The notes under the pieces were generated by a model that was not told the DNA's origin, did not search any database, and was given only the letters and a program-made list of their open reading frames with translations. From Candidatus Nomurabacteria bacterium (GTDB taxonomy: Bacteria; Patescibacteriota; Minisyncoccia; Phycocordibacterales; UBA2100): 64,000 bases of DNA. The position numbers and the translations under genes are program-made. Positions 2,355 through 33,158 of the stretch are shown in pieces; position 1 is the first letter of the stretch; each line of letters begins with the position of its first letter. The DNA is taken from positions 11,671 through 75,670 of the forward strand of contig CALRFU010000005.1 in the NCBI GenBank assembly GCA_943356775.1, read 5' to 3'.

Positions 2355-2394
2355 GAACCGCCGGCGCTGATGCGTCCGGCGGTTCGATTTTTTA
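2355..2394 (+). terminator. Rho-independent terminator (10-bp GC stem, T6 tail)
   Basis: gaaccgccgg-N11-ccggcggttc followed by gatttttt, directly after the 1768..2334 CDS. Confidence 0.65.
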
Positions 2395-3450
2395 TGACTT
2401 CTTGAGGAGATGGAACGTGCGCGTATTCATATCCACCGTACCCACCAATATTTTGAGCTTTTTCATTATCGCAGGCACCTTTTCCCGCAAGACACGCTCG
2501 GCCTCCCGTTCGAGGTAGAGCGCTTTCTCGTTGGCGACACCGTGGTCGGCCCCAACCGAACGGAACGGGGCAAGGACGAGCAAGAGTGCCCCTTCTTTTT
2601 CAGGGATTCTTTTGGCCTTCATATTTGCTAAAACAATGGTGCCTGCGACCGCGACGGCATTTTCCCACTGAGGGTCGTACGGCCCAATCATGAGCGCCCT
2701 GTTTGGCAGATGGAGCCAGTCGAAGCCGCGGCCGACCGCAATAATCTGCTCTTTGTGTTCCATCTCGACGACAGGGCGATGCGCGGCGCGGATATCACGT
2801 ACATACTTTTGGTTGCCCGCGACGAGCGGGAGTAGATCTTCGAGCACGTTGTCGGGTATATCGGGATACATGTGACGGAGCTCGCTGTGAATACTTTCGA
2901 GTGGCGCATCGGCGTGATTCGCAATATCAAACGTGCGTTTCCCTTTTCCATGAAAGACGAGGCCGCCTTCGTCGGTCTCCATGCCAATGACGAGCGGAAA
3001 GACGGTTGTGTGATTGGCGCCGAATGCCGATTCAAATTGATCGCGCAAACGTACCGCTCCCGCACGCGCGGCATCGGTATCGTATTTATGGCCCGCACAT
3101 CCGCGGTGTACATCCCCTTTCGAGAAGTGGTAGGTCGAGAGCACGTAGGTGGGACGACCCTTGGAGACCGCATGCTCAATATCATCGAGCATGAGGCGAC
3201 CGAAGAACGGCCAACCGAGGTCGAACTTGCCGCCGATGTTGCGGTACGGCTTGATGATGCCCGGCGGCGTGTGGGTCATGACCGAGAGGTTGAGGCGGCC
3301 GTCCATGCACTTGAGGGCGATAATCTCGCTCGGGTGCTGGGCGCGGTAGAGGCGGCGAGCAAGCTGCGAGCCGGGCGAGCGGAAATCGGCGCTCTGGAGC
3401 TTATTGCGCTCAAGTATGAACTTGACCAAATCCTTTTGTTTTTCTGCCAT
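2392..3450 (-). CDS. Beta-carbonic-anhydrase-like domain protein with a roughly 200-aa C-terminal extension
   Basis: 352 aa. CMDGRL (CxDxR) and HRGCAGH (HxxCxG) motifs about 57 residues apart, as in beta-class carbonic anhydrase zinc ligands. The rest is unrecognised. Confidence 0.4.
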   Translation of the reverse strand: MAEKQKDLVKFILERNKLQSADFRSPGSQLARRLYRAQHPSEIIALKCMDGRLNLSVMTHTPPGIIKPYRNIGGKFDLGWPFFGRLMLDDIEHAVSKGRPTYVLSTYHFSKGDVHRGCAGHKYDTDAARAGAVRLRDQFESAFGANHTTVFPLVIGMETDEGGLVFHGKGKRTFDIANHADAPLESIHSELRHMYPDIPDNVLEDLLPLVAGNQKYVRDIRAAHRPVVEMEHKEQIIAVGRGFDWLHLPNRALMIGPYDPQWENAVAVAGTIVLANMKAKRIPEKEGALLLVLAPFRSVGADHGVANEKALYLEREAERVLREKVPAIMKKLKILVGTVDMNTRTFHLLKKS

Positions 3451-3550
3451 ATAAGGGGGTAATGTACTACCAAAGCGCCGAAAAAGGAAGTCTGCGCAGT
3501 GTGTATAGGAATACTATTCATCTAATCTTAAATGGGGTATACTCGCGGAT

Positions 3551-3676
3551 ATGGCAAAACGAGCGAGTCAGGATATAAAGAATAAGAAATCGCGTTCTCG
3601 AAAGACCTCGAAGCGTCTTGCGGCCAAGCGGGCAATGCTCGCTGCGCGCCCGACGAAGCGCAAGAAACACCGATAA
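3551..3676 (+). CDS. Small highly basic peptide (41 aa), possible nucleic-acid-binding or ribosomal-like
   Basis: Translated by hand: MAKRASQDIKNKKSRSRKTSKRLAAKRAMLAARPTKRKKHR. TATACT box 8 nt upstream of the ATG. Below the ORF-track length cutoff. Confidence 0.3.
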   Translation: MAKRASQDIKNKKSRSRKTSKRLAAKRAMLAARPTKRKKHR

Positions 3677-3809
3677 TATCGAAACCAACCTCCCCTCATC
3701 GGGAAGGTTTTGGTATCAGGGCAAACGACCCATTTTCTTGGACAAATCCCGGAGGGAGGTATAGCATTGGAGCTAGGTCCCGCTCTTGAGGACCAAGGAG
3801 GAAACGCCG

Positions 3810-16500: not shown

Positions 16501-16710
16501 GCCGAAAGAAAACTTCACGAGTTTCAATTCGAACTTTTTGCCGGAGTGGTCGGAAATCGGGGAGAATTCCTTGAACACACGTTCAGCACCTCCGTCGACG
16601 AAGTCCTGAAAAGATTTTATCTGCGCTTCAACGAGGCTTGGGAATTTTACGAGTGGCTCGATGAACTTGCCGAAGTACTTCTGCGGTCGCACTGATTTCT
16701 GTTTCGCCAT
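13531..16710 (-). CDS. rpoB: DNA-directed RNA polymerase subunit beta RpoB
   Basis: 1059 aa with conserved C-terminal GGQRVGEMEVWAFLGYGAAYSLREILTIKSDD; immediately upstream of rpoC. Confidence 0.97.
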   Translation of the reverse strand: MAKQKSVRPQKYFGKFIEPLVKFPSLVEAQIKSFQDFVDGGAERVFKEFSPISDHSGKKFELKLVKFSFGDLRWDEQYAKRAMKTYEAPLSMVVRLKNKTTGDEKEQEIFLADFPWMTPHGTFVINGVERIVVPQLARSYGVFFESIPYKGKSYFAAKIIPARGVWIEIESDADGGIYVKIDRKRKFPVTSLLRVLGLSSEKEVLAQFEKSPLARDAMVKTLEHDHAKTPEEAFVEIYRRLRDGDIATPESARDHVASILSPERYDFSRVGRFHFNRRFGLGIAEKDLANVTLTLADVIRIITHIAESNANPAAQADDIDHLGFRRVRFAGELLEGRMRVGLSRMKRNIQDRMAMVDAETTNPVSFVNPRPFQAAIREFFTTDQLSQLMQQYNTLDEIEHLRTLSTLGRGGLTSERAGLEVRDVHSSHYGRVCPIHTPEGKNIGLVLHMSLYARPNEFGIIETPYAKVEKGLVTKEIVYLNALEEEQYAIAHAGIPRDELGHISPKVVEVRREGNPTLVKRENVDFMEVATNQPFSVATSLIPFVENDDANRALMGSNMQKQAVPLVVPEAPVVATGVEAAAARDSGRLIIAEEAGEVIYADAQMIKVKNTDGKTKEHPLVNFSRTNGFTTFHQRPLISVGDSVKKGTVLADTSTSVGGQLAIGQNVRVAFLPWFGANFEDAIVISEKLAKEARFTSIHMEEFICVVRDTKLGAEVTTHDIPNVSEFKLRNLDEDGVIRIGAEVRSGDILVGKVTPKGETQLTPEERLLHAIFGEKAKDVKDTSLRMEGGKRGRVIGVKIFSRETGDQLESGVIKRVHIEVAQLRTISVGDKLAGRHGNKGVISRILPEEDMPFDKDGNPVDIILTPLGVPSRMNLGQILELHLGLAADMLGYQAIVPSFAGATEEEIRGELAKAGVSETGKRILFDGRTGEAFAQPVSVGVMYILKLHHMVEDKIHMRSIGPYSLTTQQPLGGKAQNGGQRVGEMEVWAFLGYGAAYSLREILTIKSDDILGRSAAFDAIVSGKRIQESNTPATFNVLVRHLRGLGIDIEFKGGSQNF

Positions 16711-16973: not shown

Positions 16974-17906
16974 CTAATAACCTTTCTCATCAACCGTCAC
17001 CCCGCTGCGAATTCCAATTTGAGCATTTGATTTGGTCGATTCCTTATCTAGTTCATCAAGAAGGCTCCTGAACTCTGTCATCCACGCGGGGTCTAAGTAT
17101 CCTTGTAGATTTCGTGTTAGATTCTTCAATCGATACTCTCCGCCCCCCTTCGGTCCGTGACCGACATAGCTCCTGTACAATATGCCTGCTTCGTCTGCTG
17201 TCCGATGTTCGGACTGGAACGCAAGTATCTCGTATATTAATTGGACAAGATTTGCAGCAAATTCCGTTCGATAGTCTTCCTTGAGACCTCGAGGCAGACT
17301 CATTGATTGAGCCAGTTGTAGAGATTGCCCAAGCCATCTGTCCGCTTTTTCTCCAAAATTAAAAGGGAATTCCTTGTTTATCGCCGCTGCGGCTTTCGTA
17401 AATCTTTCAAAACCTTTCGGAGTAACGTCACCGTGATACGTTTTTACGTGACTCTGATAGGCGTCATACATAACCTTACTTGCCCCCGGAGCGCTTGTGC
17501 CCGTGTCGACCTTCAACAATTTGAACTTGTTCCAATTCTTTTCTTTGACAGCCCTGAGCGCTTCCATAACCAACTCTTGTGTCTGCTTTATTGCTTCGGG
17601 GTCTCTGTTTTGTTCTTTCCCCAAAGAATCAAGTACCGAGCTTTTCGCCGAAAGACCTCCGAGCGTCTGGTCTACTACAGATCTAAACTCGGCAACTTTA
17701 TCAGCCGGAACTTCACCCTTATATGCCAAACGCATATTATCCCACGCTGTAAGAACAGCTGCCTCCGTGGCAAGATCATCTCCCTGTTTTGCAGATTGCT
17801 CAGCCACTGTTAATTGCTCTTTTGCATCATCTGCAAATTTCTCATCCCTCTTTTCATCTCCCTGCACTGAATTACCTTGAGGTTTTATCGCATTAGGCAT
17901 GCTCAC
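16974..17906 (-). CDS. Hypothetical soluble protein (310 aa)
   Basis: Long ORF with no TM segment or recognisable motif, AT-richer than its neighbours, lying between an IS-like element and rpoB. Confidence 0.5.
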   Translation of the reverse strand: MSMPNAIKPQGNSVQGDEKRDEKFADDAKEQLTVAEQSAKQGDDLATEAAVLTAWDNMRLAYKGEVPADKVAEFRSVVDQTLGGLSAKSSVLDSLGKEQNRDPEAIKQTQELVMEALRAVKEKNWNKFKLLKVDTGTSAPGASKVMYDAYQSHVKTYHGDVTPKGFERFTKAAAAINKEFPFNFGEKADRWLGQSLQLAQSMSLPRGLKEDYRTEFAANLVQLIYEILAFQSEHRTADEAGILYRSYVGHGPKGGGEYRLKNLTRNLQGYLDPAWMTEFRSLLDELDKESTKSNAQIGIRSGVTVDEKGY

Positions 17907-17951
17907 ATTTTACACCAAAAAGCACCACGAGCATTGACCAAAATCGACTCT

Positions 17952-18685
17952 CTTCGGAGGTTAAACCTTCGGAGATTCGTGGTACGCTAGACGGATGGCA
18001 ACACGGGCACCATGCGTGACAGACGAGTGGTATCACTGCTACAACAGGGGTGTCGACAAGCGCAAGGTTTTCGAGTCGAAGGCGGACTATGAACGCTTCA
18101 CCGCCCTCTTATATGTTTCAAACGGGGATAAGACCGAGGCTATTTCCGACAGGTACCGCAGAGATTTGCAGTCGATTCTCGCAGGTGACCCCGCGGAGCG
18201 GGGCAGACCCCTCGTAGACATCGCTGCTTTTTCCTTGATGCCTACCCATGTCCACTTGGTGTTACAACAACTGCAAGACGGCGGGATTGCCCGATTCATG
18301 CAGAAAGTATTTACCGGCTACACGATGCATTTCAATGCGAGGCGGGAGCGAACCGGCGCCTTGTTCGCGGGTACATACAAAGCGAAACACATCGACGACG
18401 ATAGATATCTCAAGAAGGTGATTCCGTACGTTATTTTGAATCCTGCGGAGCTATTTGAACCGAAATGGAAACAAGGAAAATGCGATGTTCGAAAGGTGCG
18501 CGCGCAATTGTTGGAATATCCCTACTCCAGTGTGAAAGAGTTCTTCAGTAAAGACGCAACGGCCCAGAAAATCACTGGCGCAGGTATACGAGAATACTTC
18601 GACCGAATGCCGAATCTGACGGAAATGCTTAGAGACGCGCAGGACTACTACCGTGAGTATTCTCCGGAGGTTTAACCTCCGGAGT
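17952..18685 (+). mobile_element. Compact IS-like element: HUH Y1 transposase gene flanked by 23-bp terminal inverted repeats
   Basis: Left end 17952..17974 is CTTCGGAG-GTTAAAC-CTTCGGAG. Right end 18663..18685 is CTCCGGAG-GTTTAAC-CTCCGGAG, the reverse complement of the left end with 2 mismatches. They enclose the 17995..18675 transposase ORF. Confidence 0.6.
17995..18675 (+). CDS. tnpA: IS200/IS605-family (RAYT-like) HUH tyrosine transposase
   Basis: 226 aa with YHCYNRGVDKRKVF..., the HUH motif MPTHVHLVL, and catalytic-Tyr region FTGYTMHFNARRE...GALFAGTYKAKHI. Confidence 0.7.
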   Translation: MATRAPCVTDEWYHCYNRGVDKRKVFESKADYERFTALLYVSNGDKTEAISDRYRRDLQSILAGDPAERGRPLVDIAAFSLMPTHVHLVLQQLQDGGIARFMQKVFTGYTMHFNARRERTGALFAGTYKAKHIDDDRYLKKVIPYVILNPAELFEPKWKQGKCDVRKVRAQLLEYPYSSVKEFFSKDATAQKITGAGIREYFDRMPNLTEMLRDAQDYYREYSPEV

Positions 18686-19321
18686 TTTACGTGATTTCTT
18701 CCATTCCTCGATTTTGGCGTGATGGCCGGAGAGGAGAATCTTGGGGACCCGGTGTTTTTTACCTTTCCACTCAAGAACCTCCGGTCGGGTGTAGACGTCG
18801 GGGCTCGATACACGGGATGCTTCAAGGGATTCTGCCTTACCCAAGACCCCCGGTACAAAGCGGGAAATAGCGTCTATAAGAGTGGCTGCCGGAAGCTCCC
18901 CGCCCGTGAGCACATACGGTCCGACAGAGACTTTCTTTGCCTTCAGTATTTTTTGTACGCGCGCATCTACTCCTTCGTAGTGTCCGCAAATAAAAAGTAT
19001 GTCTTTCTTTTTGGAAAGCTCCTTGGCCATCACCTCATCGAATACCACGCCATCAGTGGCGAAGAATATCTTTTCAACTCCTTTTTTATTCCCTATCGCC
19101 TTCTGCGCCGCGCGCAACATCCCATCCGGCTCTAAAACCATACCGGGTCCGCCACCGTATGGTCGTCTGTCGACACGTCCATGTCTGTCTCGAGTGAACT
19201 TTTTCGGGTCGTAATATGAAATTTTTATTTTTTTTGCGGCAATCGCACGGCCAATGATAGAAGCGTTGAGATACGGCTCAATAGATTCGGGAAACAAAGT
19301 AACGACGTGAAAATGTAGCAT
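18629..19321 (-). CDS. trmD: tRNA (guanine37-N1)-methyltransferase TrmD
   Basis: MLHFHVVTLFPESIEPYLNASIIGRA...DDRPYGGGPGMVL motifs. Its 3' end overlaps the IS-like element's right end. Confidence 0.9.
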   Translation of the reverse strand: MLHFHVVTLFPESIEPYLNASIIGRAIAAKKIKISYYDPKKFTRDRHGRVDRRPYGGGPGMVLEPDGMLRAAQKAIGNKKGVEKIFFATDGVVFDEVMAKELSKKKDILFICGHYEGVDARVQKILKAKKVSVGPYVLTGGELPAATLIDAISRFVPGVLGKAESLEASRVSSPDVYTRPEVLEWKGKKHRVPKILLSGHHAKIEEWKKSRKTPEVKPPENTHGSSPARL

Positions 19322-22926: not shown

Positions 22927-24612
22927 ATGAAATTAGACCGCGAAGAAGTCCCTCGTGCAGCAGGTAAAGGAGGTACTCGCGGCGAACTCCCAAAGCCGAT
23001 CCCTGAAATGATAAAGCCGCATAGTGAAGCCGCTCAGCGTGTCCTTGATTTGCGAAACGCCATCCATAAGATCGGATCTAAGGAGCCTCCCGTAAGCCCT
23101 CAAATCATCAAGGGCTTGTTCCCGTACTACATGGGAGAAAAGAAAATCGCCGACACAATTGAGGGTGATCGAATAACCCGCGAAATCGCGATCAATCTAA
23201 GCGAGATTCAAAATTTTCATAGTGAATGGCGTCAATCATGGATGCTGGATCCAAACAACAAAGAAGCTCTGGAGAGGATGACGGCGAATCCATCGCAGAG
23301 TCGAGGGATGATTCCACTCGGGGTTTCTTTTTCCCCAGAAAGCTCCCGCCGACCTGACGATCTTCCAGAAATACCCAGGTCCCTACGCCTAATGCTTCAT
23401 GAAGATGAAAATGTATCGCATCACGTACGTAGAACATTCGTACTGGCTCTCAGTGGAATGAGTTTCAAGAATACTCCTGAGGGAAAACTGTGTCAGGTTT
23501 TTGCAAAACTCTTTAAAGAGCGAAATAGGGCGCAAATCGATGCCCACGACATCCATATGCGTGGCCAATTTGATAATGCAGCACTTGCGCTTCTTTCGTA
23601 TAAGATAATTTATCCCGTGATTCGAGAACAAGAAAATCGCGATGGTTCAACCACTGAGAAAGTCGGATTCGGGATGAATTTGCGTCTTCTTGAACGCCAC
23701 GCTGAAGTCTTTCTTGCACGTGAACGGTATGAGCGTCTCGAGAAAAGGATTTCAAAAGAAACAGACTCTTCCGTTCGTGCGCAATTGGAAAGCGAGCTTC
23801 TCGCACTCTCCGAAAAAAAGCAAGATGCCGACACGTTCATTGCTAATCTAAAAAAGGGCTTTGGCATTAAAGACCCTGGAACAATCTTTGAGACTTTTGG
23901 CGATCGCCTCTATGTGCGAAGCTCAGACTTACCTGTGTTCGACTCTCCCCAACCAGGTGATACAGCGAAAGGTAGAGCAATTTCGTCTCGAAGTCTTGAC
24001 GCAGCGCTTGAAATGCTTACGAAACGCGAAATACCCGATGAGAAGAAATTTGTTTCTCAAGATTTAAATACGCGATCAGCCGAATTTTCACACCGATTAC
24101 ATTTTGCCACAATTACCTTGGGTGAACTGACTGAGTCAGTCTCTCAATTTAAGGAAGGTATCGTAGACGAGGACACCCGATCAGTTGCTCGCAACCTACT
24201 AAAACAAATTATCGATATCTCAGACGACGTTCGTCGCATCCACGATGCATCAAACCGAACTCTTTCCGTTGAGGGTAAAAGTCCCGAAAGTATGGGGACA
24301 CGAAAAGAGAAATTTGAACCGCTATTAAAACTCGCCGGGAGCTTAAGTAGATCATACGAGACAATTCTTGAAGACCTTAAATCGCTCCTGTTTGCAAAAT
24401 CACAAAATAATCAAGAAAGCACGGCGGGTACAAACGAAGGCACCACCGAACTTCAAGCCCAATTAAATGATGCAATAACAGAAATTGCACAAAATCGCGA
24501 ACTTATGCTGCTTGTCTGCGAATATTTAACTTCGGGCACGCCACCACGTGAGATAATCGAATTCATTAACGAGTATTTAGCACAATCTTCCGCGAGCGAA
24601 CCGAGATCATAG
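22927..24612 (+). CDS. Large hypothetical protein (561 aa), first gene of an island operon
   Basis: Soluble, helical, no recognisable motif. Its stop overlaps the start of the next gene (TAGTATG). Confidence 0.55.
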   Translation: MKLDREEVPRAAGKGGTRGELPKPIPEMIKPHSEAAQRVLDLRNAIHKIGSKEPPVSPQIIKGLFPYYMGEKKIADTIEGDRITREIAINLSEIQNFHSEWRQSWMLDPNNKEALERMTANPSQSRGMIPLGVSFSPESSRRPDDLPEIPRSLRLMLHEDENVSHHVRRTFVLALSGMSFKNTPEGKLCQVFAKLFKERNRAQIDAHDIHMRGQFDNAALALLSYKIIYPVIREQENRDGSTTEKVGFGMNLRLLERHAEVFLARERYERLEKRISKETDSSVRAQLESELLALSEKKQDADTFIANLKKGFGIKDPGTIFETFGDRLYVRSSDLPVFDSPQPGDTAKGRAISSRSLDAALEMLTKREIPDEKKFVSQDLNTRSAEFSHRLHFATITLGELTESVSQFKEGIVDEDTRSVARNLLKQIIDISDDVRRIHDASNRTLSVEGKSPESMGTRKEKFEPLLKLAGSLSRSYETILEDLKSLLFAKSQNNQESTAGTNEGTTELQAQLNDAITEIAQNRELMLLVCEYLTSGTPPREIIEFINEYLAQSSASEPRS

Positions 24613-24613
24613 T

Positions 24614-25624
24614 ATGGCAAACGGCGATAGAATTGCAGGAAGAAATATTGTACTCGAAGCAATGAAAGCCCGCCTTGCTGAAAAAGCAGCACGCAAACAA
24701 GGCGTTCCTACCCCAGAAGCAGCGGACAAACCTGCTTCACCTCAAGCCCCTGAATCGTCAATTCCCACTACACCGCGAGAGTCTGGTCGCACAGTTGCAA
24801 CCCTTGAAAATGCAATGCGCGACACCGCCGACAAAGCACGTTTCGGTAAAGAGCTTGTCGAGGCTTGCGCAAGCTTGAAAGAGAAGATTGACACCCAAGT
24901 CGTCACACTGATGAATATGATGAACAAGGCGCTCGACATTGGTACTGATGGGCGCGCATACACTCACGATACTGCGAATGATTCTATCGTCGCCAACATT
25001 ACTAACCCTGATCTCATTAGTAGTTTCCGTGCAACTGAAGAAGTCACACGAGAACTAGAAGCCGTCGTCCGTGAAATGCCTGTCGAGATTGAAAAACTCT
25101 TTCATGTACTCGATGAATCCCATGGAAAATTCATATCGATAATTACCGGTGAGAAACACGAGGTGCAGAAACGCAGCTTTGATCCCCTACCTTCAATTGA
25201 TACTCTTCCGGAACGCACTTTGCCTACTCGAACACCAAAATCTATAGAGGCTTCGCTACAAACAGCTCTCGGAGAAAGTGCCAACAGGGCTGTGTTCCTG
25301 CAAGCACTTGTCGAAGCTTCGAAAAGACTCAAGGAGAAGATTGATGTGCGTGTGGTTACCCTTCTATCCATGATGAACAAGGCGCTCACTCAAGGCGTCG
25401 ATGATATTGCGTATACATTCGACCCTGGAAATAATCGCATGATGGCTGTCCCACAAGTAGACCTCGTCATAGGGTTCACTACTACCGAAAATGTCGCTCG
25501 CGAACTTGAGGGGGCTGTAATTGACATGCCGCGCGAGATTCAATTATTGATAGAGGAACTCCTGAAAGCAGACGAAGAATTTAAAGAACTCATTGCGCAA
25601 GGATTAGCAGCAGGATCAAATTGA
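24614..25624 (+). CDS. Hypothetical protein (336 aa) with an internal roughly 100-aa tandem domain duplication
   Basis: Two related segments (ARFGKELVEACASLKEKIDTQVVTLMNMMNKAL... and AVFLQALVEASKRLKEKIDVRVVTLLSMMNKAL...). Translationally coupled to its neighbours. Confidence 0.55.
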   Translation: MANGDRIAGRNIVLEAMKARLAEKAARKQGVPTPEAADKPASPQAPESSIPTTPRESGRTVATLENAMRDTADKARFGKELVEACASLKEKIDTQVVTLMNMMNKALDIGTDGRAYTHDTANDSIVANITNPDLISSFRATEEVTRELEAVVREMPVEIEKLFHVLDESHGKFISIITGEKHEVQKRSFDPLPSIDTLPERTLPTRTPKSIEASLQTALGESANRAVFLQALVEASKRLKEKIDVRVVTLLSMMNKALTQGVDDIAYTFDPGNNRMMAVPQVDLVIGFTTTENVARELEGAVIDMPREIQLLIEELLKADEEFKELIAQGLAAGSN

Positions 25625-25630
25625 TACAAT

Positions 25631-25684
25631 ATATGCCAGAATCATTTCTCAGTAAAAATATGCCAGAATCATTTCTCAGTAAAA
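25631..25684 (+). repeat. Perfect 27-nt x2 tandem duplication, in-frame (MPESFLSKN/MPESFLSKK)
   Basis: atatgccagaatcatttctcagtaaaa occurs twice consecutively at the 5' end of the giant gene. Confidence 0.9.
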
Positions 25685-28600
25685 AGAGGGCGGGACGTGG
25701 AGGAGGGCCGACGCTCGGTTCGTACTCGGGCTCTAAGGTAACCGTCGAGCACCAATTACCGACTCCGACTGGTATAGAGTCCAAAGTCAGCGAAGAAGTA
25801 CGCATGGCGATCGAGAAAATCAAGGCAAACGCCGTCAATGAAATGGTCACGCAAATGAAAAGCGTCGGCCTCGATATTGACGATGCTAGCGTTCGGGCGG
25901 CAGTCAATCAATATGAAAAAGATCCTAGTGTGAGGGATGGTGCAATCAATGCGATTCGAGACATGATGAAGGGCCTTAAAGGAAAGGGTCCGGATGAGAT
26001 TGCAGAAACTCTCGCAAACGATGCACAAGCCGTTTTCACTGCAGCAAAAAATAATACGGAAATTCCACTCAATAACGTTCTTATTCCCCTTCTCATATCA
26101 CAGGGGGAGCTAGAACAAACCGAGCTCGATGAAGCTGCTCGAATGAAACTCAGGGGCGTAAAGTTGAGCACGCGACGACTTAAGACGGGCCCTGTTTCTG
26201 CTGCTAAAGGCGTAGTCGGGCGACTCGCAGTCCCCTCAGCGGTACTGCTACACACAACCCTTGCAGTCGTCGACACAGCTGTCATTGAGAAAGCAGCTTC
26301 AGGCGTACTCTCGGACTGGGCCGTAGAAGGTGCCACTAAAGAGGCTCTCGCATGGGGCTTCTCGGGCGCCGGCAACGTTCTTCTCGTCAAACAAAAACTC
26401 AGTGTACGAGGTGAATGGATTCGCGGAACGGCGGATTTTTTCTGGAGCGACACAAACAAAGGCCGAGTATATGGTGCACTCGCGGCATCATTTCTTGCAC
26501 TTGCGACACCGGCAATTCTCGGCCAGGTGAAGCGCGGTACAGTTGATACAGCTGTTTCGGGGGAAGTTGGCCCGAAAATGGGAGCTCGTTACAAGCCAGA
26601 AATTGACAGCATTCAAGAGACAATCAGACTCGCACAAGGGCTCTTTGGGTCTATACAACCATCAATCGACGATAAAATGCGAACAGCTTTCAAAGATGGA
26701 GGAATCGGATGGGGCCGCAGGACGTGGAGCATTAATCGTGTTTTATACGGCAAGAACGCAGAAAGCGACCGCAACTACGAGGCATTCAGGGCGGATCCAA
26801 ATGCATCTGCGACATTTCGAGGAAAACCCATGGCAGAGTTTGCAAGAGGAGTTGTACCGCCTGCAGAATCGCAGCGCCAGTCCGCAACTGCATCGGCCGA
26901 TCTTACACAGGCACGAAAAGAATTGGAAACGCTGAGAAAAACGCCCTCGACCAAGAACGAGACAGGCCAAGCAAAACAAAAAGCCGCTATTAAAGCTGCT
27001 GAACTTAAAGTACGAAATGCTCAGGGCGCTACCAATGCGCCACGTGGCGCAATTCCGGAGGCCAAGTCCACGCCCGGAGCGGGTGCCGGCCCTGATCCCG
27101 ACGCTGTCCAAAAAGCTATGCTATCGCTTAATCAACGCTACGGCCTCAATCCAACTGATGGAGCAGAACAGTATCTGAAGAAACTTACCGATGAAATTGA
27201 AAAAATAAATCCAGAGCAGGTATTCAAAATACTTGATTCACTTCTCAAAGAGAGTGAAATACTTTCAAAATCAGGCATCATCGGAAATATTTTTGGCGTG
27301 CTTGCACCCGTGCCAACAATCATGGGGACTATCGGTTCGAACGTTTGGCGTGGAGAAGGAGCGAGTTCATTCACGAAAAATGTCCCTTGGGAGGATATGT
27401 TCCATAGCTCATCAGGGGTGCGCGCAATGTTCAAAACTGAAGAAAAATATCTTGCACGTCGCAATGAGATGGTAAAAAGTCTAAAGATGATCATGGTTAG
27501 TACGCAATTCGAGAAATACCTCACTGATGTAGCCAAGGAAACGGGAGTCGACACAAAGATGGTGATCCCATCAACAACGTTCACAATCGCAGATGACGCC
27601 ACTGGTATAGATCGCACGCCCTACAAAGTAATGGTTGATAAGACCGTTTTAGATTATGCCTTACCTCTCATGCCGCCTAACGACAGTCCGGAATGGGGGT
27701 ACATCGACACAAGTTTCAAAAATTCAGGAATCACATGGATCGATGTAAAGACTGATGCTGGGAAATATCAGGCAATGGGTCTGCTCGTCGGATTCGTACT
27801 CTTAATTCTTGCTGGAAGTGTCTGGTATACGATCGGCATGAAAAAACTGAGTAAACGATGGGGCATTGACAATGCTTTGCGCGATGATGAGAAGCGAGGG
27901 TTGTTTGCAGTTGAATCGAAAATTGTGAATGACATGGTCAAGCTCGTGCGCGATCGTGAAAAGACGCTCATGGGAGCAATTGCAAAAAGCGGAAGTAGTT
28001 CCCAATTACCGCAACGTGACGAACTAGCACTTGGCGCGGTCTTGCAACGACGCCTGCGCGAAGAAGTCCTTTCGAAGATGCAACAGCCGCTCGATAAAAC
28101 ACCTGAAGGTATCGCGTTTATCAATCGCGAAAACTCCCTCGGTAGTCGTGCACTGCGTATGGAATATGCTGCAAAACTCAACGAATACATCGAGGGCTAC
28201 AAAAATGACCGCAGCGGGGCCGTTGTCACAATTCTCGATGATATCGATGCGGGTAGATATGAGGAGATCAGGGCGCTTCAGGCATTCGTACAACAGAGTC
28301 AGCCCATCGCAACAACAGAACTCGCCGCGAAGAACATTGCCGCGTGGTGGGAACGCATTGATGTCAAGTTCGTTAATGAAGAAGTTGAAGCTCGTAAAGC
28401 TGACATACAAAACCTCTATGCTGAGCGCGAGGCCGTTGTAAATCTTCGCGCGCCGATGCAAATTCTTCTCACCGACAGCGTGGCACCAGGCAGCATCACG
28501 CCCGCTGATATTTTGTATACATCGCGACTGACGGAACTTGATAGTCTTATCGCCACTCAACACGAGGCGATTAAGCAAATCACGAACGGCGCTGTCGATG

Positions 28601-29430
28601 GTCCTATACAACGCGATACTAAGGTAGTCTTTTCGAATGAACAGATAGAGGAGCTTCGCGACGACCTTCAAAACGAAGAACTCAACAACACCCTCGACGG
28701 TAGTGATATTACATCGGTCGCTAAAGAATATAGCGCACTCGCTCAAAGCCTCGGAAAACGCGTCCGCTCTCTTGAGAACTTCGTCACAGCAGCATTCGGC
28801 GACGAAACTGCGGGTGGTCGAATCTCATTTGAATACGCATATCGTCCCGACGTTTTCGGACCCACTATTGTTATCAATCTACAGCGAGCAGACGGAGAGA
28901 CTCTTACCGTACCGCTGCAACAAACGGTACCGAATCGACTCCTTGCCACAGATGAATCGATAATCCAAGCTATGGCCCAGTGGCTACGGCCTGATAGTAA
29001 AGAGATGAGACTAATGCGATTGTACGCTGTCCATGATTCGTATAAAGCAGCTGCTGATGCCGTCAAAAAAGAAATACTTGGTGACGCCTCGAGCGGTCTC
29101 GTTGATGTAGTTAGTTTCGATGATGAGAAATTTGCGGGCGTGCAAGAGTTACTCGAACGTAGCGATGTCATACGCATCCAAAGGCAATTACTGGAACAGA
29201 TCAAGGCTTCTGGTGAACCACTTAATCAAGTACAACAGCGGGTTTTCGAGGAGCCAGATAAAGTGGCTCTCGGAGGTATGTGGAAAAAAGATATCCGAAC
29301 GGTTTTAAAAGCGGCTACCGATCTCAACCCGGACTCAACAGTGCAATACGACGTCGGTACTGAGGAGGTCGTTATCAAGAATACATTGGGAGAACGCAGG
29401 GTGAACGTGCGTAACGTGCCAAGTACCTAA
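25633..29430 (+). CDS. Giant hypothetical membrane protein (about 1265 aa) with coiled coils and a central TM segment
   Basis: ATG at 25633 (the ORF track starts at TTG 25621). Strong TM helix YQAMGLLVGFVLLILAGSVWYTIGM near residue 720 plus 2-3 weaker hydrophobic segments. No recognisable domain. The first 18 aa carry an in-frame tandem duplication. Confidence 0.55.
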   Translation: MPESFLSKNMPESFLSKKRAGRGGGPTLGSYSGSKVTVEHQLPTPTGIESKVSEEVRMAIEKIKANAVNEMVTQMKSVGLDIDDASVRAAVNQYEKDPSVRDGAINAIRDMMKGLKGKGPDEIAETLANDAQAVFTAAKNNTEIPLNNVLIPLLISQGELEQTELDEAARMKLRGVKLSTRRLKTGPVSAAKGVVGRLAVPSAVLLHTTLAVVDTAVIEKAASGVLSDWAVEGATKEALAWGFSGAGNVLLVKQKLSVRGEWIRGTADFFWSDTNKGRVYGALAASFLALATPAILGQVKRGTVDTAVSGEVGPKMGARYKPEIDSIQETIRLAQGLFGSIQPSIDDKMRTAFKDGGIGWGRRTWSINRVLYGKNAESDRNYEAFRADPNASATFRGKPMAEFARGVVPPAESQRQSATASADLTQARKELETLRKTPSTKNETGQAKQKAAIKAAELKVRNAQGATNAPRGAIPEAKSTPGAGAGPDPDAVQKAMLSLNQRYGLNPTDGAEQYLKKLTDEIEKINPEQVFKILDSLLKESEILSKSGIIGNIFGVLAPVPTIMGTIGSNVWRGEGASSFTKNVPWEDMFHSSSGVRAMFKTEEKYLARRNEMVKSLKMIMVSTQFEKYLTDVAKETGVDTKMVIPSTTFTIADDATGIDRTPYKVMVDKTVLDYALPLMPPNDSPEWGYIDTSFKNSGITWIDVKTDAGKYQAMGLLVGFVLLILAGSVWYTIGMKKLSKRWGIDNALRDDEKRGLFAVESKIVNDMVKLVRDREKTLMGAIAKSGSSSQLPQRDELALGAVLQRRLREEVLSKMQQPLDKTPEGIAFINRENSLGSRALRMEYAAKLNEYIEGYKNDRSGAVVTILDDIDAGRYEEIRALQAFVQQSQPIATTELAAKNIAAWWERIDVKFVNEEVEARKADIQNLYAEREAVVNLRAPMQILLTDSVAPGSITPADILYTSRLTELDSLIATQHEAIKQITNGAVDGPIQRDTKVVFSNEQIEELRDDLQNEELNNTLDGSDITSVAKEYSALAQSLGKRVRSLENFVTAAFGDETAGGRISFEYAYRPDVFGPTIVINLQRADGETLTVPLQQTVPNRLLATDESIIQAMAQWLRPDSKEMRLMRLYAVHDSYKAAADAVKKEILGDASSGLVDVVSFDDEKFAGVQELLERSDVIRIQRQLLEQIKASGEPLNQVQQRVFEEPDKVALGGMWKKDIRTVLKAATDLNPDSTVQYDVGTEEVVIKNTLGERRVNVRNVPST

Positions 29431-29473
29431 AAGCAAAAGTCCCCTTGTATTTTCGTATGGGGACTTGGCTTAG

Positions 29474-29655
29474 TTAAAAGATCCTCTTGGCTATGAAATG
29501 CAGGAATGCTCCCAGCATACAGGCTGAGAGCGCGATCGTGATGACAACGGCCAATTTCCGTATATGTGGCACACCTGCGTACTCGAGCGTAAATGTAACC
29601 ACCCAAACTATCAGCACAACCACGAACATGACTGAAAGCGCTTTTCGATTTGTCA
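29474..29655 (-). CDS. Small two-TM membrane protein (60 aa)
   Basis: AAGGAG 8 nt upstream of the ATG. MTNRKALSVMFVVVLIVWVVTFTLEYAGVPHIRKLAVVITIALSACMLGAFLHFIAKRIF. Confidence 0.55.
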
Positions 29656-29742
29656 TGAGACATCTCCTTGCATTTCCATGAAGAGTTAGCCCGCTGCCGA
29701 GTACATTACCATGAACATGCGCTTGGGCAACTTTGGGATGCT

Positions 29743-29835
29743 CTACCACCCCTTCGCAATGAGCGCCTTTTGAGCGGCGTCTTGTTCTGCTTCTTGTTTG
29801 GAGTGACCCTCGCCGAGGGCGATCTTTCGCGAGCG
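29743..29835 (-). pseudogene. Relic copy of the rnc 3' end (last roughly 27 codons plus stop)
   Basis: Minus-strand translation ...KIALGEGHSKQEAEQDAAQKALIAKGW* matches the C-terminus of rnc at 30481..30570 (...KLAIGEGRSKQEAEQDAAQKALIAKGW*) with about 75% nucleotide identity. It is not part of a long ORF. Confidence 0.7.
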
Positions 29836-29895
29836 ATGTAGGCGACGACAAACACCTCGTGATCGGGTTTGAAGCGGGGATCGGGATAGCTCGAG

Positions 29896-30159
29896 CTATT
29901 CGTACAATTCACTATGTGTGCCAATACGGATAAATATACAAGCATCACCGTCGGTGAAATATAGTGCGCGGTAATCTCCCGTGATGTTGATACTTCTGCA
30001 ACCGCCATACTCTCCACTGAGTGAGTGATTCTTCAGCAGCGGATTAAGTGGGTTCGTTTCGAACAACAGCTTACGCTCGACGAACTTGCTACGTATACTC
30101 AAGTCGAGTTTTTTTATATTCTTCAGAAACGATGGGCGCAGGACGATTTTCATGCCCAA
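29896..30159 (-). CDS. relE: Type II toxin, RelE/ParE (YafQ-like) family
   Basis: 87 aa ending LSGEYGGCRSINITGDYRALYF...IFIRIGTHSELYE, the RelE/ParE core. Confidence 0.75.
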   Translation of the reverse strand: MGMKIVLRPSFLKNIKKLDLSIRSKFVERKLLFETNPLNPLLKNHSLSGEYGGCRSINITGDYRALYFTDGDACIFIRIGTHSELYE

Positions 30160-30432
30160 TTAGAGCGACAAGAGATATTCGTCCATCTCTTTCGCGTTTT
30201 TAAAAGCGATCATGTTTTTGCCCGACTTTATATCCCGCATAGCTTCCTTGATCGCCTTCCGTGTTTCGGCATTTGGGATTTCCGGCCGTTCAAACACAAC
30301 GCGCTGATCAGTAACAAAATCCTTCAAGTATCGATTGATTATCGTCCCGAGTGGAAGACCAAGGTCACGTGCCACCTCTTGGGCCTTCTTTTTAAGTTTG
30401 GCGTCCGTTTTGACCGAAAGCATGGTCTTCAT
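30160..30432 (-). CDS. relB: Type II antitoxin, RelB/DinJ family
   Basis: MKTMLSVKTDAKLKKKAQEVARDLGLPLGTIINRYLKDFV..., a DinJ-like RHH N-terminus. Immediately upstream of and abutting the toxin gene. A TTGACG-N-TATATA promoter-like sequence lies at about 30440..30475. Confidence 0.7.
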   Translation of the reverse strand: MKTMLSVKTDAKLKKKAQEVARDLGLPLGTIINRYLKDFVTDQRVVFERPEIPNAETRKAIKEAMRDIKSGKNMIAFKNAKEMDEYLLSL

Positions 30433-30480
30433 ATATCCAAAGTATATACAAAGGATATTACGCGTCAAGCGTGCATAGTA

Positions 30481-31170
30481 TCACCACCCCTTGGCGATGA
30501 GGGCCTTTTGCGCTGCGTCCTGCTCCGCCTCTTGTTTGGACCGGCCTTCGCCTATCGCCAGCTTCTCGGTCCCTATAAACGCGCCGATGAGAAATACTTT
30601 GTCGTGGTCAGGTCCGGTCTGACTCATCACCTGATAGGTGGGCGTGATGCCGTTTTTTTCCTGGGCCACTTCCTGCAACTTGCTTTTGGCGTCCTGCCAG
30701 AGCCTGTTGGCAACGACGTCGTCGGTCTTATGAAAAAGCTGGTCTGCAATGAATTTTTTCGCCGTCTCATACCCTGAATCGAGATACAAAGCACCGATGA
30801 GTGCCTCAAACGCATTCGCAAGGATTATCAATCGCGCACGGCCCACGTCTTTCGATTCCCCCTTCGAGAGCATGAGGTATTCATTTATCCCAAGCTTCGT
30901 CCCCGCATCCGCGATACTCTGCGTATTCACGAGAGCCGCACGAAATGCGGTTAATTCTCCTTCCGGCTTCTCGGGATATTTTGCGTACAAAAATTCGGTG
31001 ACGACGAGTTCCAAGACAGCATCTCCGAGAAATTCGAGGCGCTCGTTGTGCTCACGGCCGGCAGCCCGGTTCTCGTTGAGATACGAACGATGCGTAAAAG
31101 CCGTCTCGAGCAGACGCTTATCGTTGAATGAGTATCCGAGCTTAGTCTCGAAGGCCGCGAGTTCCGCCAT
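30481..31170 (-). CDS. rnc: Ribonuclease III
   Basis: RNase III signature ERLEFLGDAVLELVVTEFLY and a C-terminal dsRBD. Confidence 0.93.
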   Translation of the reverse strand: MAELAAFETKLGYSFNDKRLLETAFTHRSYLNENRAAGREHNERLEFLGDAVLELVVTEFLYAKYPEKPEGELTAFRAALVNTQSIADAGTKLGINEYLMLSKGESKDVGRARLIILANAFEALIGALYLDSGYETAKKFIADQLFHKTDDVVANRLWQDAKSKLQEVAQEKNGITPTYQVMSQTGPDHDKVFLIGAFIGTEKLAIGEGRSKQEAEQDAAQKALIAKGW

Positions 31171-31172
31171 AG

Positions 31173-32126
31173 CTACTTTTTCTTACGCGGACGGGAAGGA
31201 GCCGCAGGCGTGTCGGGCTTTTCTTTTTGCGCGAGCACGTTGATGGCGGGGACAATTATTTTCAAAGTATCGTCGTACAGGTTCAAATCACCGACGGCGG
31301 AGAGTGGAAACCATTGCGCATCGTCGAGACCTCCGCTGCTTCCGAGTCTGATTTCTGAGAAAGGAGATTCGGCGAGGAAGTAGCTCACGCGCTTGCGCTT
31401 CTTGCCGCCTTCGACTTTTGAGTCATTGGCCACATATTCGTTGACGCCGAGTTCTTGGACAATTTTAATATCAAGCCCCATCTCTTCTTTTATTTCGCGA
31501 ATCGCACCAGTCTGCACGTCTTCACCTTCTTCTATCTTGCCTTTTGAGAGCGTCCAGTGACCGAAGATATCGTGGACAAATGCGAGATACGTCTCCCCTT
31601 CTGAACGTGCAAAAACGACAGCACCCGCCAAATGCTCTGTCGGCATTTTTACCGGCTTTTGTCCGACGTCTTTGCGGACGCCGCCCTCATTTTTGCCTGG
31701 CTCGCCAAGCTCGACGTACACAGCACCCAAGACGCCGTTTACGAATCGCCCCGAGGATTCACTGCCGAAAGATTTCGCAAGCTCTATTGCTTCATTGATA
31801 GCGACTTTTGCTGGCACTTGTGTGCGGTCCGAAAAGAGAAGCTCGGTGAGCCCGAGGCGCAGGACGTTGCGGTCGATTGCCGCGATGCGGTCTATCGGCC
31901 ACTCCGGTGCGGCACGCACAATGACTTCGTCTATTTCTTTTTGTTTGGCGACCGCAGTAGAAAGGAGTTCTTTCATGAACGGCATGTCAGAGTCGCGTGC
32001 GCCGAATTCTTTACCGTAATCGAGAAGCCGGGAGACTGCTTCGTCGCTTGTCATCTTGCCCTCCGAAGAGTCGCGCTCAAAGAGCACTTGGAGAACGACT
32101 GAACGAGCAAGGTGTCTATTTGCCAT
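31173..32126 (-). CDS. nusB: NusB-like antitermination domain fused to a C-terminal NUDIX hydrolase domain
   Basis: N-terminus has NusB motifs (ARSVVLQVLFERD...RIAAIDRNVLRLGLTELLF...VAINEAIELAKSFGSESSGRFVNGVLGAV). C-terminus has the Nudix box GKIEEGEDVQTGAIREIKEEMGL. Confidence 0.75.
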   Translation of the reverse strand: MANRHLARSVVLQVLFERDSSEGKMTSDEAVSRLLDYGKEFGARDSDMPFMKELLSTAVAKQKEIDEVIVRAAPEWPIDRIAAIDRNVLRLGLTELLFSDRTQVPAKVAINEAIELAKSFGSESSGRFVNGVLGAVYVELGEPGKNEGGVRKDVGQKPVKMPTEHLAGAVVFARSEGETYLAFVHDIFGHWTLSKGKIEEGEDVQTGAIREIKEEMGLDIKIVQELGVNEYVANDSKVEGGKKRKRVSYFLAESPFSEIRLGSSGGLDDAQWFPLSAVGDLNLYDDTLKIIVPAINVLAQKEKPDTPAAPSRPRKKK

Positions 32127-32268
32127 AATACAAGAGCTGCTTCACAAAGAAGTATACCCCATGAGATACCGACTTCAATTGCGCAAGGTGTTGATTAATA
32201 GATTGTGAGGATCGGCGTCGGATACAAAAATAAAAAACATCTCACGGGGCGAGCACAAAAAGGCGGGC

Positions 32269-32544
32269 TTAGACGGCCTGCGTGGTCTCTTTTTCTTTCG
32301 TCTCTTCGGATTGTCCGCTCGCGCGCAATTCGGTCTGCTTGCGCTTCTGGCGACGCGCGGTGCGCTTAGCGGCCGCGACAATATCGATAACTACTTTACC
32401 GTTGTACTTGCCGCACTCCGGACATGCGCGGTGAGACATGCGGGAAGCGCCACACTCGCATTTTGTGAGGCGTTGACCGGAAATAGCGTGATTGCTGCGC
32501 CGTTTTGCGGTCTGGGAACGATTCTTACGCATTCGTACTACCAT
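32269..32544 (-). CDS. rpmF: 50S ribosomal protein L32 with a C-terminal extension
   Basis: MRKNRSQTAKRRSNHAISGQRLTKCECGASRMSHRACPECGKYNGKVV matches the L32 zinc ribbon. The exact start is uncertain (MVVRM or MRKN). Confidence 0.8.
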   Translation of the reverse strand: MVVRMRKNRSQTAKRRSNHAISGQRLTKCECGASRMSHRACPECGKYNGKVVIDIVAAAKRTARRQKRKQTELRASGQSEETKEKETTQAV

Positions 32545-32555
32545 ATGTGGGAGGA

Positions 32556-33158
32556 TTATACAGACTTTGAGCCAACGTGCAATCTCGAACAGAATGTTGC
32601 GCGGTGTATCTCAGAGAGTCCGCAGCGGGCTATGACCGACAGGTGGGAGGCGGTGCCGTACCCTTTATGGACATGGAAATCGTATGCTGGGTACTTCGGC
32701 GAGAGCCGCTTCATCATTCTGTCCCGTGTGACCTTGGCCATAACGGATGCGAGTGAAATAGCGGGCTCGGTGTCGTCTCCACGGATAATTGTCTCCTGAT
32801 AGATGTACTCTTCCGGCGCCTTGAGGCTGCCGTCCAGCAGCACGCGACAGTCCGCGGGCGCAACTTCGAAGCGGGAAAGTGCTTCGGCGAGTGCGCGCTT
32901 GATGGCAGGCACGATTCCGTACGTATCAATATATGCGGCTGAGGACGTTGATACCGAGAAGCGGAGTGCGGACGTTTTTTCGAGCTCCCGCGTACGCTCA
33001 AATATTTCTTCGCGCACTTTTTCTGAAAGTTTCTTGGAGTCCCGGACGCCTTCTACGAGGCTCCAATCAAAATCTACCGGTACCAAGACCGCGCCGACAG
33101 AAACAGGCCCCGCGAGTGGTCCGCGCCCCGCTTCGTCAATACCTATGAGGTAATTCAT
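32556..33158 (-). CDS. rnhB: Ribonuclease HII
   Basis: GIDEAGRGPLAGPV...DSKKLS...LLDGS..., the RNase HII catalytic motifs. Confidence 0.9.
   Translation of the reverse strand: MNYLIGIDEAGRGPLAGPVSVGAVLVPVDFDWSLVEGVRDSKKLSEKVREEIFERTRELEKTSALRFSVSTSSAAYIDTYGIVPAIKRALAEALSRFEVAPADCRVLLDGSLKAPEEYIYQETIIRGDDTEPAISLASVMAKVTRDRMMKRLSPKYPAYDFHVHKGYGTASHLSVIARCGLSEIHRATFCSRLHVGSKSV

Follow-up and report, generated by a model that had tools for sequence, protein, structure and literature searches.

A NusB antitermination factor fused to a Nudix domain in Paceibacteria

The fusion gene and its two halves

Here we describe a gene in which the transcription antitermination factor NusB is joined to a Nudix hydrolase domain, and which lies on the minus strand of a stretch of 64,000 nucleotides from Candidatus Nomurabacteria bacterium (GenBank assembly GCA_943356775.1, contig CALRFU010000005.1, positions 11,671 to 75,670 of the forward strand); this whole stretch is called the window below. 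According to both the sequence and the list of open reading frames (ORFs), the gene is one ATG-started ORF of 317 codons with zero internal stops, and its TAG stop occupies 31173-31175. A first-pass annotation of this DNA had described a single 317-aa ORF that joins a complete NusB N-terminal domain to a C-terminal Nudix domain with a clear Nudix box. This description proved accurate in each of its parts: the frame runs uninterrupted over 31173..32126 (-), and in a Pfam search, which had been put forward as a check, PF01029 and PF00293 both scored well above their gathering scores. The gene and its parts are the following:

31173..32126, minus strand: nusB::nudix fusion gene, 317 aa and a TAG stop, carrying both Pfam domains; the same protein is found on 23 contigs
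31707..32126, minus strand: NusB domain, residues 1-140, seven helices (PF01029, TIGR01951, AlphaFold2, Foldseek)
31692..31718, minus strand: junction motif Y137-x-E-[LIM]-G-E-P-G-K145, where NusB helix 7 ends and passes into the linker
31647..31706, minus strand: flexible linker, residues 141-160 (AlphaFold2 confidence, low identity)
31221..31646, minus strand: Nudix domain of the diadenosine tetraphosphate (Ap4A) hydrolase class, residues 161-302 (PF00293, PDB profile, Foldseek, AlphaFold2)
31473..31541, minus strand: Nudix box, residues 196-218, GKIEEGEDVQTGAIREIKEEMGL, read from the sequence
31176..31220, minus strand: Lys/Pro-rich C-terminal tail, residues 303-317, not conserved

The fusion is genuine, as was confirmed by the single ORF, by its recurrence on other contigs and by the loci of its relatives. 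The 317-aa protein was found letter-identical on 23 contigs of separate assemblies, and the same architecture is present across 80 species-level loci (the best 80 of at least 592, inspected with flanks of ±4-10 kb); a frameshift or an assembly artefact is therefore excluded for practical purposes. A stop or frameshift between the halves, for which the first-pass annotation had advised a check, was not found in the window sequence, and the 23 contigs agree with it. The best 120 database relatives of the window protein, which are 78-100% identical to it and are labelled Candidatus Kaiserbacteria or Parcubacteria, all carry the NusB and NUDIX Pfam domains (120/120) within a length of about 280-380 aa.

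The NusB half matched PF01029 over residues 7-136 (E 1.8e-30, 106.4 bits against a cut-off of 23.1) and exceeded the cut-off of the nusB equivalog model TIGR01951 (117.3 against 88.35 bits). In an AlphaFold2 model, for which a 62-sequence alignment served as the input, residues 4-140 are predicted to form seven helices with a predicted local distance difference test (pLDDT) score above 90, and Foldseek superimposed this half on the NusB structures of T. maritima (1TZV) and Aquifex (3R2D) with a template modelling (TM) score of 0.86 and a root-mean-square deviation (rmsd) of 1.9-2.0 Å. The functional residues were mapped using alignments to 2JR0/3R2C and 1EY1. In the structure of the NusB-NusE-BoxA complex, F122 of NusB stacks on U8 of BoxA (PMC3177189), and AaE81 as well as EcY18, the latter at the NusE interface, were read from the same paper. 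F128 of the window protein aligns with the U8-stacking F122 and is invariant among the family members (62/62 and 120/120), while D85 aligns with AaE81 (120/120 in a second, profile-ranked sample that is described below). F16 aligns with Y18 of E. coli at the NusE/S10 interface, a position that is Phe in 119/120, and a 15-residue stretch of the NusB half, KVAINEAIELAKSFG, is identical in E. coli NusB. Judged by these alignments, there is no sign of a degenerate NusB: the BoxA- and NusE(S10)-binding residues are kept, and this half appears to be a competent NusB.

Canonical NusB (E. coli 3D3B, Aquifex 3R2C and T. maritima 1TZV) has in common with it the seven-helix domain that scores above the equivalog cut-off, the KFVNGVL motif of helix 7, F128, F16 and the syntenic nusB slot. 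However, canonical NusB ends a few residues past helix 7, whereas the fusion protein continues for about 175 further C-terminal residues, which comprise the junction motif, the flexible linker, the Nudix domain and a basic tail. Another protein in which a NusB-type RNA-binding domain stands at the N-terminus of an rRNA-acting enzyme is the 16S rRNA 5-methylcytosine (m5C) 967 methyltransferase RsmB/Sun, whose NusB-like N-terminal domain targets the enzyme to the rRNA. The RsmB models matched only residues 7-136 of the window protein, with 33-40 bits against cut-offs of 269-540, and no methyltransferase Pfam match, and hence no RsmB-type m5C methyltransferase domain, was found in the fusion protein. 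In contrast to RsmB, its NusB half is a true equivalog in the nusB locus and not a diverged RsmB-type domain. The earlier statement that NusB is normally a stand-alone protein holds in part, as the unfused relatives have a plain nusB of 140-150 aa, but a NusB-like domain also heads RsmB.

The Nudix half matched PF00293 over residues 171-280 (E 1.8e-16, 60.8 bits against a cut-off of 21.1). Its box, GKIEEGEDVQTGAIREIKEEMGL, fits the consensus GX5EX7REUXEEXGU at every defined position and keeps G196, E202, R210, E211, E214, E215 and G217. Residues 163-302 were modelled with a pLDDT above 90 in an alpha/beta/alpha Nudix fold, and Foldseek gave a probability of 1.00 to many Nudix structures. The class of this domain was determined by comparing a profile of 44 diverse Nudix halves with the PDB sequences. 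The top match was the Aquifex Ap4A hydrolase aq_158 (3I7U, E 9e-24), with which the model also agrees in fold (TM 0.88-0.90, rmsd 2.1-2.2 Å), and further matches were Chlamydia CT771 (E 1e-16), the Thermus diadenosine hexaphosphate (Ap6A) hydrolase Ndx1 (E 9e-15) and the Ap4A hydrolases of C. elegans and human (NUDT2; E 1e-13). The next PDB family below the Ap4A hydrolases was Dcp2, which participates in mRNA decapping (E 5e-11), and mycobacterial MutT1 was found at E 4e-10. Contrary to the earlier suggestion of a hydrolase of the NAD-cap or guanosine tetraphosphate (ppGpp) type, the models for NudC (NF001299, 17.3 bits against a cut-off of 158), RppH (NF001936, 26.6 against 118; NF001938, 19.3 against 116), YtkD (TIGR02705, 15.7 against 154) and MutT/8-oxo-dGTPase (NF008044, 23.6 against 148; NF052459, 37.4 against 475) all scored far under their cut-offs, and membership of the NudC, RppH, YtkD and MutT families was rejected. 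By profile and by predicted fold, the Nudix half is of the dinucleoside-polyphosphate (Ap4A/Ap6A) hydrolase class, and its residues show the window protein, in which all of the catalytic positions are kept, to have an intact Ap4A-class Nudix domain.

The characterised Ap_nA hydrolases (3I7U, 1VC8 for Ndx1, 4ILQ for CT771, 1KTG/3U53 and 5GG5/9CXX) have their fold in common with the Nudix half (target-normalised TM 0.72-0.90), as well as the W-T/S-x-P/S-K-G motif ahead of the box, the Nudix box itself and the C-terminal aromatics. However, they are stand-alone or, in MutT1, joined to a histidine-phosphatase domain, whereas the domain of the fusion family hangs on NusB and, in many members, has the Glu of the 'RE' pair replaced by Lys, Val, Ile, Ala or Ser. 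The similarity to MutT1 is limited to the Nudix domain; the title of 9CXX names Rv2985, a mycobacterial MutT1, a diadenosine polyphosphatase. In the alignment to the C. elegans Ap4A hydrolase, Y284 corresponds to CeY121, K195 to CeK36 and W191 to CeW32, while Y231 lies beside CeF75/Y76 and the basic loop 241-246 corresponds to CeK79-K83. In the C. elegans enzyme, we take Y76 and Y121 to be adenine-stacking and K36, K79, K81 and K83 to be phosphate-binding residues.

RppH, NUDT2 and Dcp2 belong to the same superfamily, and NUDT2 also to the same sub-class as the Nudix half. With 19-27 bits against the RppH cut-offs of 116-118, the latter is not a member of the RppH family, although it may act alike. 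Regulators of the NrtR/AraR type resemble the fusion protein in that a Nudix fold, often a non-catalytic one, is joined to a transcription regulator, and the Nudix domains of NrtR (3GZ8) and AraR (5BS6) were found among the structural and sequence matches of the Nudix half. They have, however, a winged-helix DNA-binding domain and ligands of the ADP-ribose type, whereas the fusion combines an RNA-binding elongation factor with an Ap4A-class Nudix domain. A further protein of 577 aa, P0263, has a C-terminal Nudix domain (residues 420-560) that is 39% identical to that of the window and stands behind an unrelated N-terminal part, and it is possible that the same Nudix type may have been recruited into a second architecture.

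Both halves are confidently predicted as domains that are joined by a flexible tether, and the model shows no confident interface between them. The pLDDT of the linker was 54-61 over residues 141-162 and below 50 for residues 147-154, the predicted TM score (pTM) of the model was 0.67, and the linker is the region with the lowest pairwise identity (0.53 among 80 species). The best query-normalised TM score obtained with Foldseek was 0.40, i.e., any solved chain covers at most about 40% of the model. In the junction motif, Y137, E139, G141, P143 and K145 are unchanged in 80/80 covering sequences (81 rows, one gapped), E142 is kept in 79/80 and G144 in 75/80, and the positions are conserved in 111-120/120 of the second sample. 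The C-termini of the unfused NusB relatives do not have this motif, bar one truncated form. It lies in a segment that is predicted to be disordered, and one possibility is that it serves for docking. The C-terminal tail (pLDDT 76-78 per 10-residue block) varies even between relatives that are at least 78% identical.

The Nudix half opens with Met161 (codon 31644..31646), which is ATG in 72/80 species and TTG or GTG in four more, and whose counterpart in the alignment to the stand-alone Ap4A hydrolase of Aquifex is the initiator Met. Met161 is probably a relic start codon from a downstream nudix gene that was once separate, as would be expected from a read-through fusion. No Shine-Dalgarno (SD) enrichment was found for an internal start at Met161, in a test that is powerless here, as the genuine starts also have no SD motif.

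Distribution and genomic setting

The motif VHD[VI][FW]G[YH]W, which was derived from the Nudix half of 12 closer sequences, was compared with the GTDB contigs of one genome per species. It matched at least 599 stretches, of which 592 were confirmed by tblastn; the phylogenetic distribution, which the first-pass annotation had named as worth establishing, thus extends to at least 592 species genomes of Patescibacteria. The metagenome-assembled genomes (MAGs) among the matches were labelled Kaiserbacteria, Adlerbacteria, Campbellbacteria, Taylorbacteria, Nomurabacteria, Paceibacterota, Parcubacteria and Minisyncoccia; many third-party annotation (TPA) MAG records that are named 'Saccharibacteria' were also found, which probably are generic labels. 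The NusB and Nudix matches were fused in all 80 inspected loci, with the NusB part frame-shifted in one of them, L005. Among 1.84 billion representatives at 50% identity, HMMER found 109 matches at E<=1e-30, about 52 of which were full-length fused proteins, with identities as low as about 30%. A profile that was built from the most distant of the fused proteins matched 7108 proteins at E<=1e-20, and the best 120 of these, which form the second sample, were all two-domain proteins. The source annotation of the fused proteins is merely 'transcription antitermination factor NusB'. The fusion is shown to be ancient and common to a large part of the Paceibacteria/Parcubacteria.

The stand-alone Nudix protein of locus L085 (P0246) was considered as a possible ancestral two-gene state and was rejected, as its reading frame is that of the fusion, interrupted by a single in-frame TAA (GAV*KELGEP). 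This TAA lies at the Tyr137 position (L085 937..945), and the Nudix box of this locus has degenerated as well (RSVKEK). The NusB part of L005 is spread over two frames (~3479..3712). Both lesions may be sequencing errors or early pseudogenisation.

The surroundings of the fusion gene in the window are the following:

30481..31170, minus strand: rnc (RNase III; Ribonucleas_3_3, Ribonuclease_3, dsrm), starting 2 nt past the fusion stop
32269..32544, minus strand: rpmF (ribosomal protein L32; PF01783), the upstream neighbour
32556..33158, minus strand: rnhB (RNase HII; PF01351), upstream of rpmF, present in most of the 80 loci
32151..32178, minus strand: promoter-like TTGAAG-16-TATACT ahead of the fusion gene, weak and by consensus match only
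32241..32253, minus strand: terminator-like hairpin and T-run just past rpmF, a consensus match only and weak

The placement directly upstream of rnc, which had been pointed out in the first pass, was confirmed: 2 nt separate the stop of the fusion gene from the ATG of rnc, and rnc follows immediately downstream in 80/80 loci. The two genes are probably in one transcription unit. Upstream, rpmF was found in 77/80 loci, the other three being cut off or without a match, and also in the distant fused loci L087 and L088; in the window, dnaE begins divergently at 33519. The order rpmF - nusB::nudix - rnc was present in every locus that was long enough, including L087 and L088. In the unfused relatives L086 and L090, the order is rpmF - plain nusB of 140-150 aa - rnc, with no Nudix, while in L089 and L091 rpmF is followed by an unfused nusB, after which the contig is cut before the next gene can be identified. 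As the fused gene occupies the rpmF-nusB-rnc slot of the unfused relatives, it is most likely the orthologous housekeeping nusB of the organism. A second NusB was found neither in the 64-kb window nor within 4 kb of the fusion in the 80 loci. The promoter and terminator scan was compared with shuffled sequence (4 found against 2.9 ± 1.7 and 9 found against 4.7 ± 2.2, respectively); these counts are within or modestly above the shuffled range and the operon boundaries are therefore tentative.

Elsewhere in the window, two strain-variable regions were observed. The first is an island between rnc and smc (22927..30468), in which there is a RelB / YafQ-ParE toxin-antitoxin pair (29896..30468, minus strand) as well as three large plus-strand ORFs of 561, 336 and 1269 aa (25621..29430) without a Pfam match; in L002 and L004, which encode an identical NusB-Nudix protein, only two small ORFs lie downstream of rnc and are directly followed by smc. 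The second is an insertion at 16974..18675, between trmD (18629..19321) and rpoB (13531..16710), with an IS200-like Y1 transposase ORF (17995..18675, plus strand; PF01797, a weak match of 24 bits) and an ORF of 310 aa (16974..17906, minus strand); the trmD-rpoB gap in L002 and L004 is about 195 bp. An SD-like motif was found in 0/16 gene starts (best AGGAGG match 1-4/6), including those of rpmF (32544), gyrB (49171), pheS (51776), prf (57282), dnaE (33519) and dnaG (8613), and in several cases a hexamer similar to TATAAT or TATACT precedes the start codon by only about 6-12 nt. From this, the mRNAs of this organism seem to be leaderless or to have a very short leader. Additionally, an ORF of 352 aa (2392..3450, minus strand) gave a weak partial match to PF20686, the catalytic domain of the carboxysome shell carbonic anhydrase (24 bits, 64 residues) that probably reflects either chance similarity or a remotely related fold.

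Constraint on the Nudix half and loss of catalytic residues

The ratio of nonsynonymous to synonymous substitutions could be calculated for only 4 usable pairs, as the synonymous sites were saturated, and the amino-acid divergence of the two halves was compared instead. Among the 80 species, the NusB half and the Nudix half both had a mean pairwise identity of 0.66; in the pairs in which both proteins are without E211, it was 0.68 and 0.65, respectively. By this measure, the Nudix domain is as constrained as the essential transcription factor NusB.

The catalytic residues are conserved to a different extent in each of the samples. All seven key residues of the box were present in 10/53 diverse representatives, in which E211 is Glu in only 13/53, in 40/81 species genomes, in which E211 is Lys in 29, and in 83/120 of the second sample, in which E211 is Glu in 109; these samples are biased in different directions, as cluster representatives over-weight the divergent lineages while profile ranking favours consensus-like sequences. 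Even at an identity of at least 78% to the window protein, four relatives have RK in place of RE. Moreover, the non-Glu states at position 211 are scattered across a clustering that was based on the NusB half alone. This scatter indicates that the catalytic Glu was lost several times independently, with the caveat that the clustering, which was obtained using the unweighted pair group method with arithmetic mean (UPGMA) on a short domain, is indicative only.

Other positions of the Nudix half hardly vary. G168, D186, F188, W191, T192, K195, Y231, W272 and Y284 are invariant in the second sample (120/120), while in the diverse representatives G168, W191, T192, K195, Y249, W272 and Y284 are kept in at least 90%, D186 in 45/53 and F188 in 43/53. 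The conserved residues align with the W-T-x-P-K-G motif and with the aromatics of the Ap4A-hydrolase pocket; the latter presumably line the nucleotide pocket in the Ap4A hydrolases (e.g., Y121 of C. elegans). As many lineages have lost catalytic glutamates and yet conserve the domain, ligand binding, rather than hydrolysis, seems to be the universally selected property of the Nudix half. In our reading of these residues, hydrolysis is predicted to be kept in most of the populated lineages, including that of the window organism, and is yet dispensable.

Possible roles of the Nudix domain at the antitermination complex

The coupling of antitermination with hydrolysis, as suggested in the first-pass annotation, is a plausible proposal. 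The likeliest role of the Nudix half would be that of a module that is tethered by NusB to the antitermination complex, where it would bind, and in the window organism hydrolyse, a nucleoside-polyphosphate 5' end or a dinucleoside tetraphosphate (Np4N). It is feasible that, within the antitermination complex, NusB-S10 attaches to the BoxA of the nascent pre-rRNA leader, and that the linker, which exits at the end of helix 7, the BoxA-binding helix, keeps the Nudix module near the upstream RNA. A pocket formed by W191, T192, K195, Y231, Y249, W272 and Y284, together with the basic loop 241-246, would then bind a terminal nucleoside polyphosphate, which on the leader would be either its 5'-triphosphate or an Np4 cap. 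In the window organism, the module would hydrolyse this end to a 5'-monophosphate. Once RNase III, which is co-expressed, has set the leader free, the monophosphate would mark it for 5'-dependent decay, and NusB-S10 would be recycled in this way. In the lineages without the Glu of the 'RE' pair, the module would hold the 5' end and cleave it slowly or not at all.

The equal constraint on the two halves and the conserved pocket residues speak for this model, as does the rank of Dcp2 next to the Ap4A hydrolases among the PDB families. RsmB is a precedent for an enzyme that is targeted by a NusB-type domain. As to the chemistry, human NUDT2, an Ap4A hydrolase, converts PPP-RNA to P-RNA (PMC8616924), and dinucleoside-polyphosphate caps occur on bacterial RNA, from which they are removed by RppH and ApaH (PMC7044304, PMC8833179); because of these precedents, RNA-end chemistry is plausible for the Nudix half. 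Several observations weigh against this interpretation. What is known of its closest characterised relatives is mainly the hydrolysis of free Ap4A/Ap6A and not an action on RNA, the RppH equivalog models scored far below their cut-offs, and the Nudix half is acidic overall save for one basic loop, which is atypical for a general RNA-binding surface. The repeated loss of catalytic residues fits the role of a sensor or a scaffold at least as well. The adjacency of nusB and rnc predates the fusion and is therefore no evidence about the Nudix domain. Moreover, a search of the window for BoxA (TGCTCTTTAACAA, at most 3 mismatches) gave 15 matches against 13.9 expected, i.e., the chance level, and neither an rRNA operon or leader nor the S10 gene was found in the 64-kb window, where one tRNA was the sole Rfam family. 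Taken as a whole, from docking and capture to conversion into the monophosphate and leader decay, we consider the 5'-end model to have somewhat less than an even chance of being correct. In its most far-reaching form, the Nudix domain would be a co-transcriptional reader and decapper of 5' ends in the rRNA antitermination complex that couples antitermination, RNase III processing and leader turnover, with the non-catalytic lineages just holding the 5' end, and this we regard as doubtful.

A different possibility, which we judge to be unlikely, is that of a ligand sensor or self-resetting switch. The Nudix domain would bind free Ap4A/Np4N and hydrolyse it where it is catalytic, and its occupancy would alter antitermination by NusB, following the logic of NrtR and AraR, whose Nudix domains are among the matches. 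This would agree well with an invariant pocket in a family that lost the catalytic Glu repeatedly and independently, with a Nudix half that is conserved like NusB in the non-catalytic lineages, and with the closest relatives being hydrolases of free Ap4A/Ap6A. However, the predicted disordered linker and the lack of a confident interface offer no obvious allosteric path, and the full catalytic set is kept in most of the populated lineages, including that of the window organism. To our knowledge, there is no link between Ap4A and NusB.

The fusion could also be one of convenience, in which an adjacent gene for an Np_nN hydrolase was joined by the loss of a stop in a streamlined genome, with the domains acting independently and co-expression as the gain. 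The predicted separate folding of the domains on a flexible linker would permit this, as would the alignment of Met161 (ATG in 72/80) with Met1 of the Aquifex Ap4A hydrolase, which is what a former start codon would look like, and the compactness of the small genomes of the candidate phyla radiation (CPR), in which gene junctions are of 2 nt or overlapping. Such an origin would not explain why the fusion is kept in all 80 loci and in representatives with as little as about 30% identity, where the sole 'split' is due to one in-frame stop, nor why the junction motif YxE[LIM]GEPGK is specific to the fused proteins. A metabolic hydrolase without its catalytic Glu should decay, yet the Nudix half is constrained like NusB, and an association of mere convenience is in our opinion quite unlikely.

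An improbable explanation is that the Nudix fold is mainly a protein or RNA docking piece of the antitermination complex, its catalysis being vestigial. In E. coli, the inositol monophosphatase SuhB reportedly moonlights as an architectural subunit of the Nus complex (PMC6614801, PMC6614797), and SuhB would thus be the precedent of an enzyme fold in this complex. The dispensability of the catalytic residues in many lineages points in the same direction, and a linear motif that is strictly conserved within a segment predicted to be disordered suggests a docking site. However, the invariant residues are the aligned nucleotide-pocket positions (Y121, K36 and W32 of C. elegans, with the roles that we take them to have) and not those of another surface, and the Nudix box is perfect in the window protein and in most of its close relatives. 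Finally, a missed frameshift, a missed stop or a chimeric assembly that fused two separate genes is effectively refuted: apart from the lesions in two public loci (the in-frame TAA at the Y137 position in L085 and the NusB part in two frames in L005), the window ORF is unbroken and identical in protein on the 23 contigs, in 78/80 loci the fusion is encoded by one ORF, of which about 140 residues match NusB (L005 being frame-shifted and L055 ending at the contig edge), and the best 120 matches of each of two database searches have both Pfam domains in about 280-380 aa.

A literature search found no paper that couples NusB with Nudix and none on NusB in Patescibacteria. The NusB-Nudix architecture is plentiful in public data, where it is annotated only as NusB, and is, as far as searched, undescribed in the literature. 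Both domains are from well-known families, and what is new is their combination. NusB is a core and nearly universal rRNA transcription factor, which is regarded as a small, non-enzymatic adaptor. A large uncultivated clade has long carried a nucleoside-polyphosphate hydrolase domain on it that is equally constrained, which implies a second function at the antitermination complex that in the model organisms would be absent or performed by separate proteins. Thousands of database entries that are labelled simply 'NusB' are thereby corrected. As catalysis was lost while the pocket was preserved, the family offers a ready comparison of catalytic and binding-only forms, and the protein is small, which makes the proposal directly testable in vitro. 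If the 5'-end model is true, the fusion protein would be the first Nus factor to modify RNA ends, and the family would represent a natural experiment in which catalysis was repeatedly switched off.

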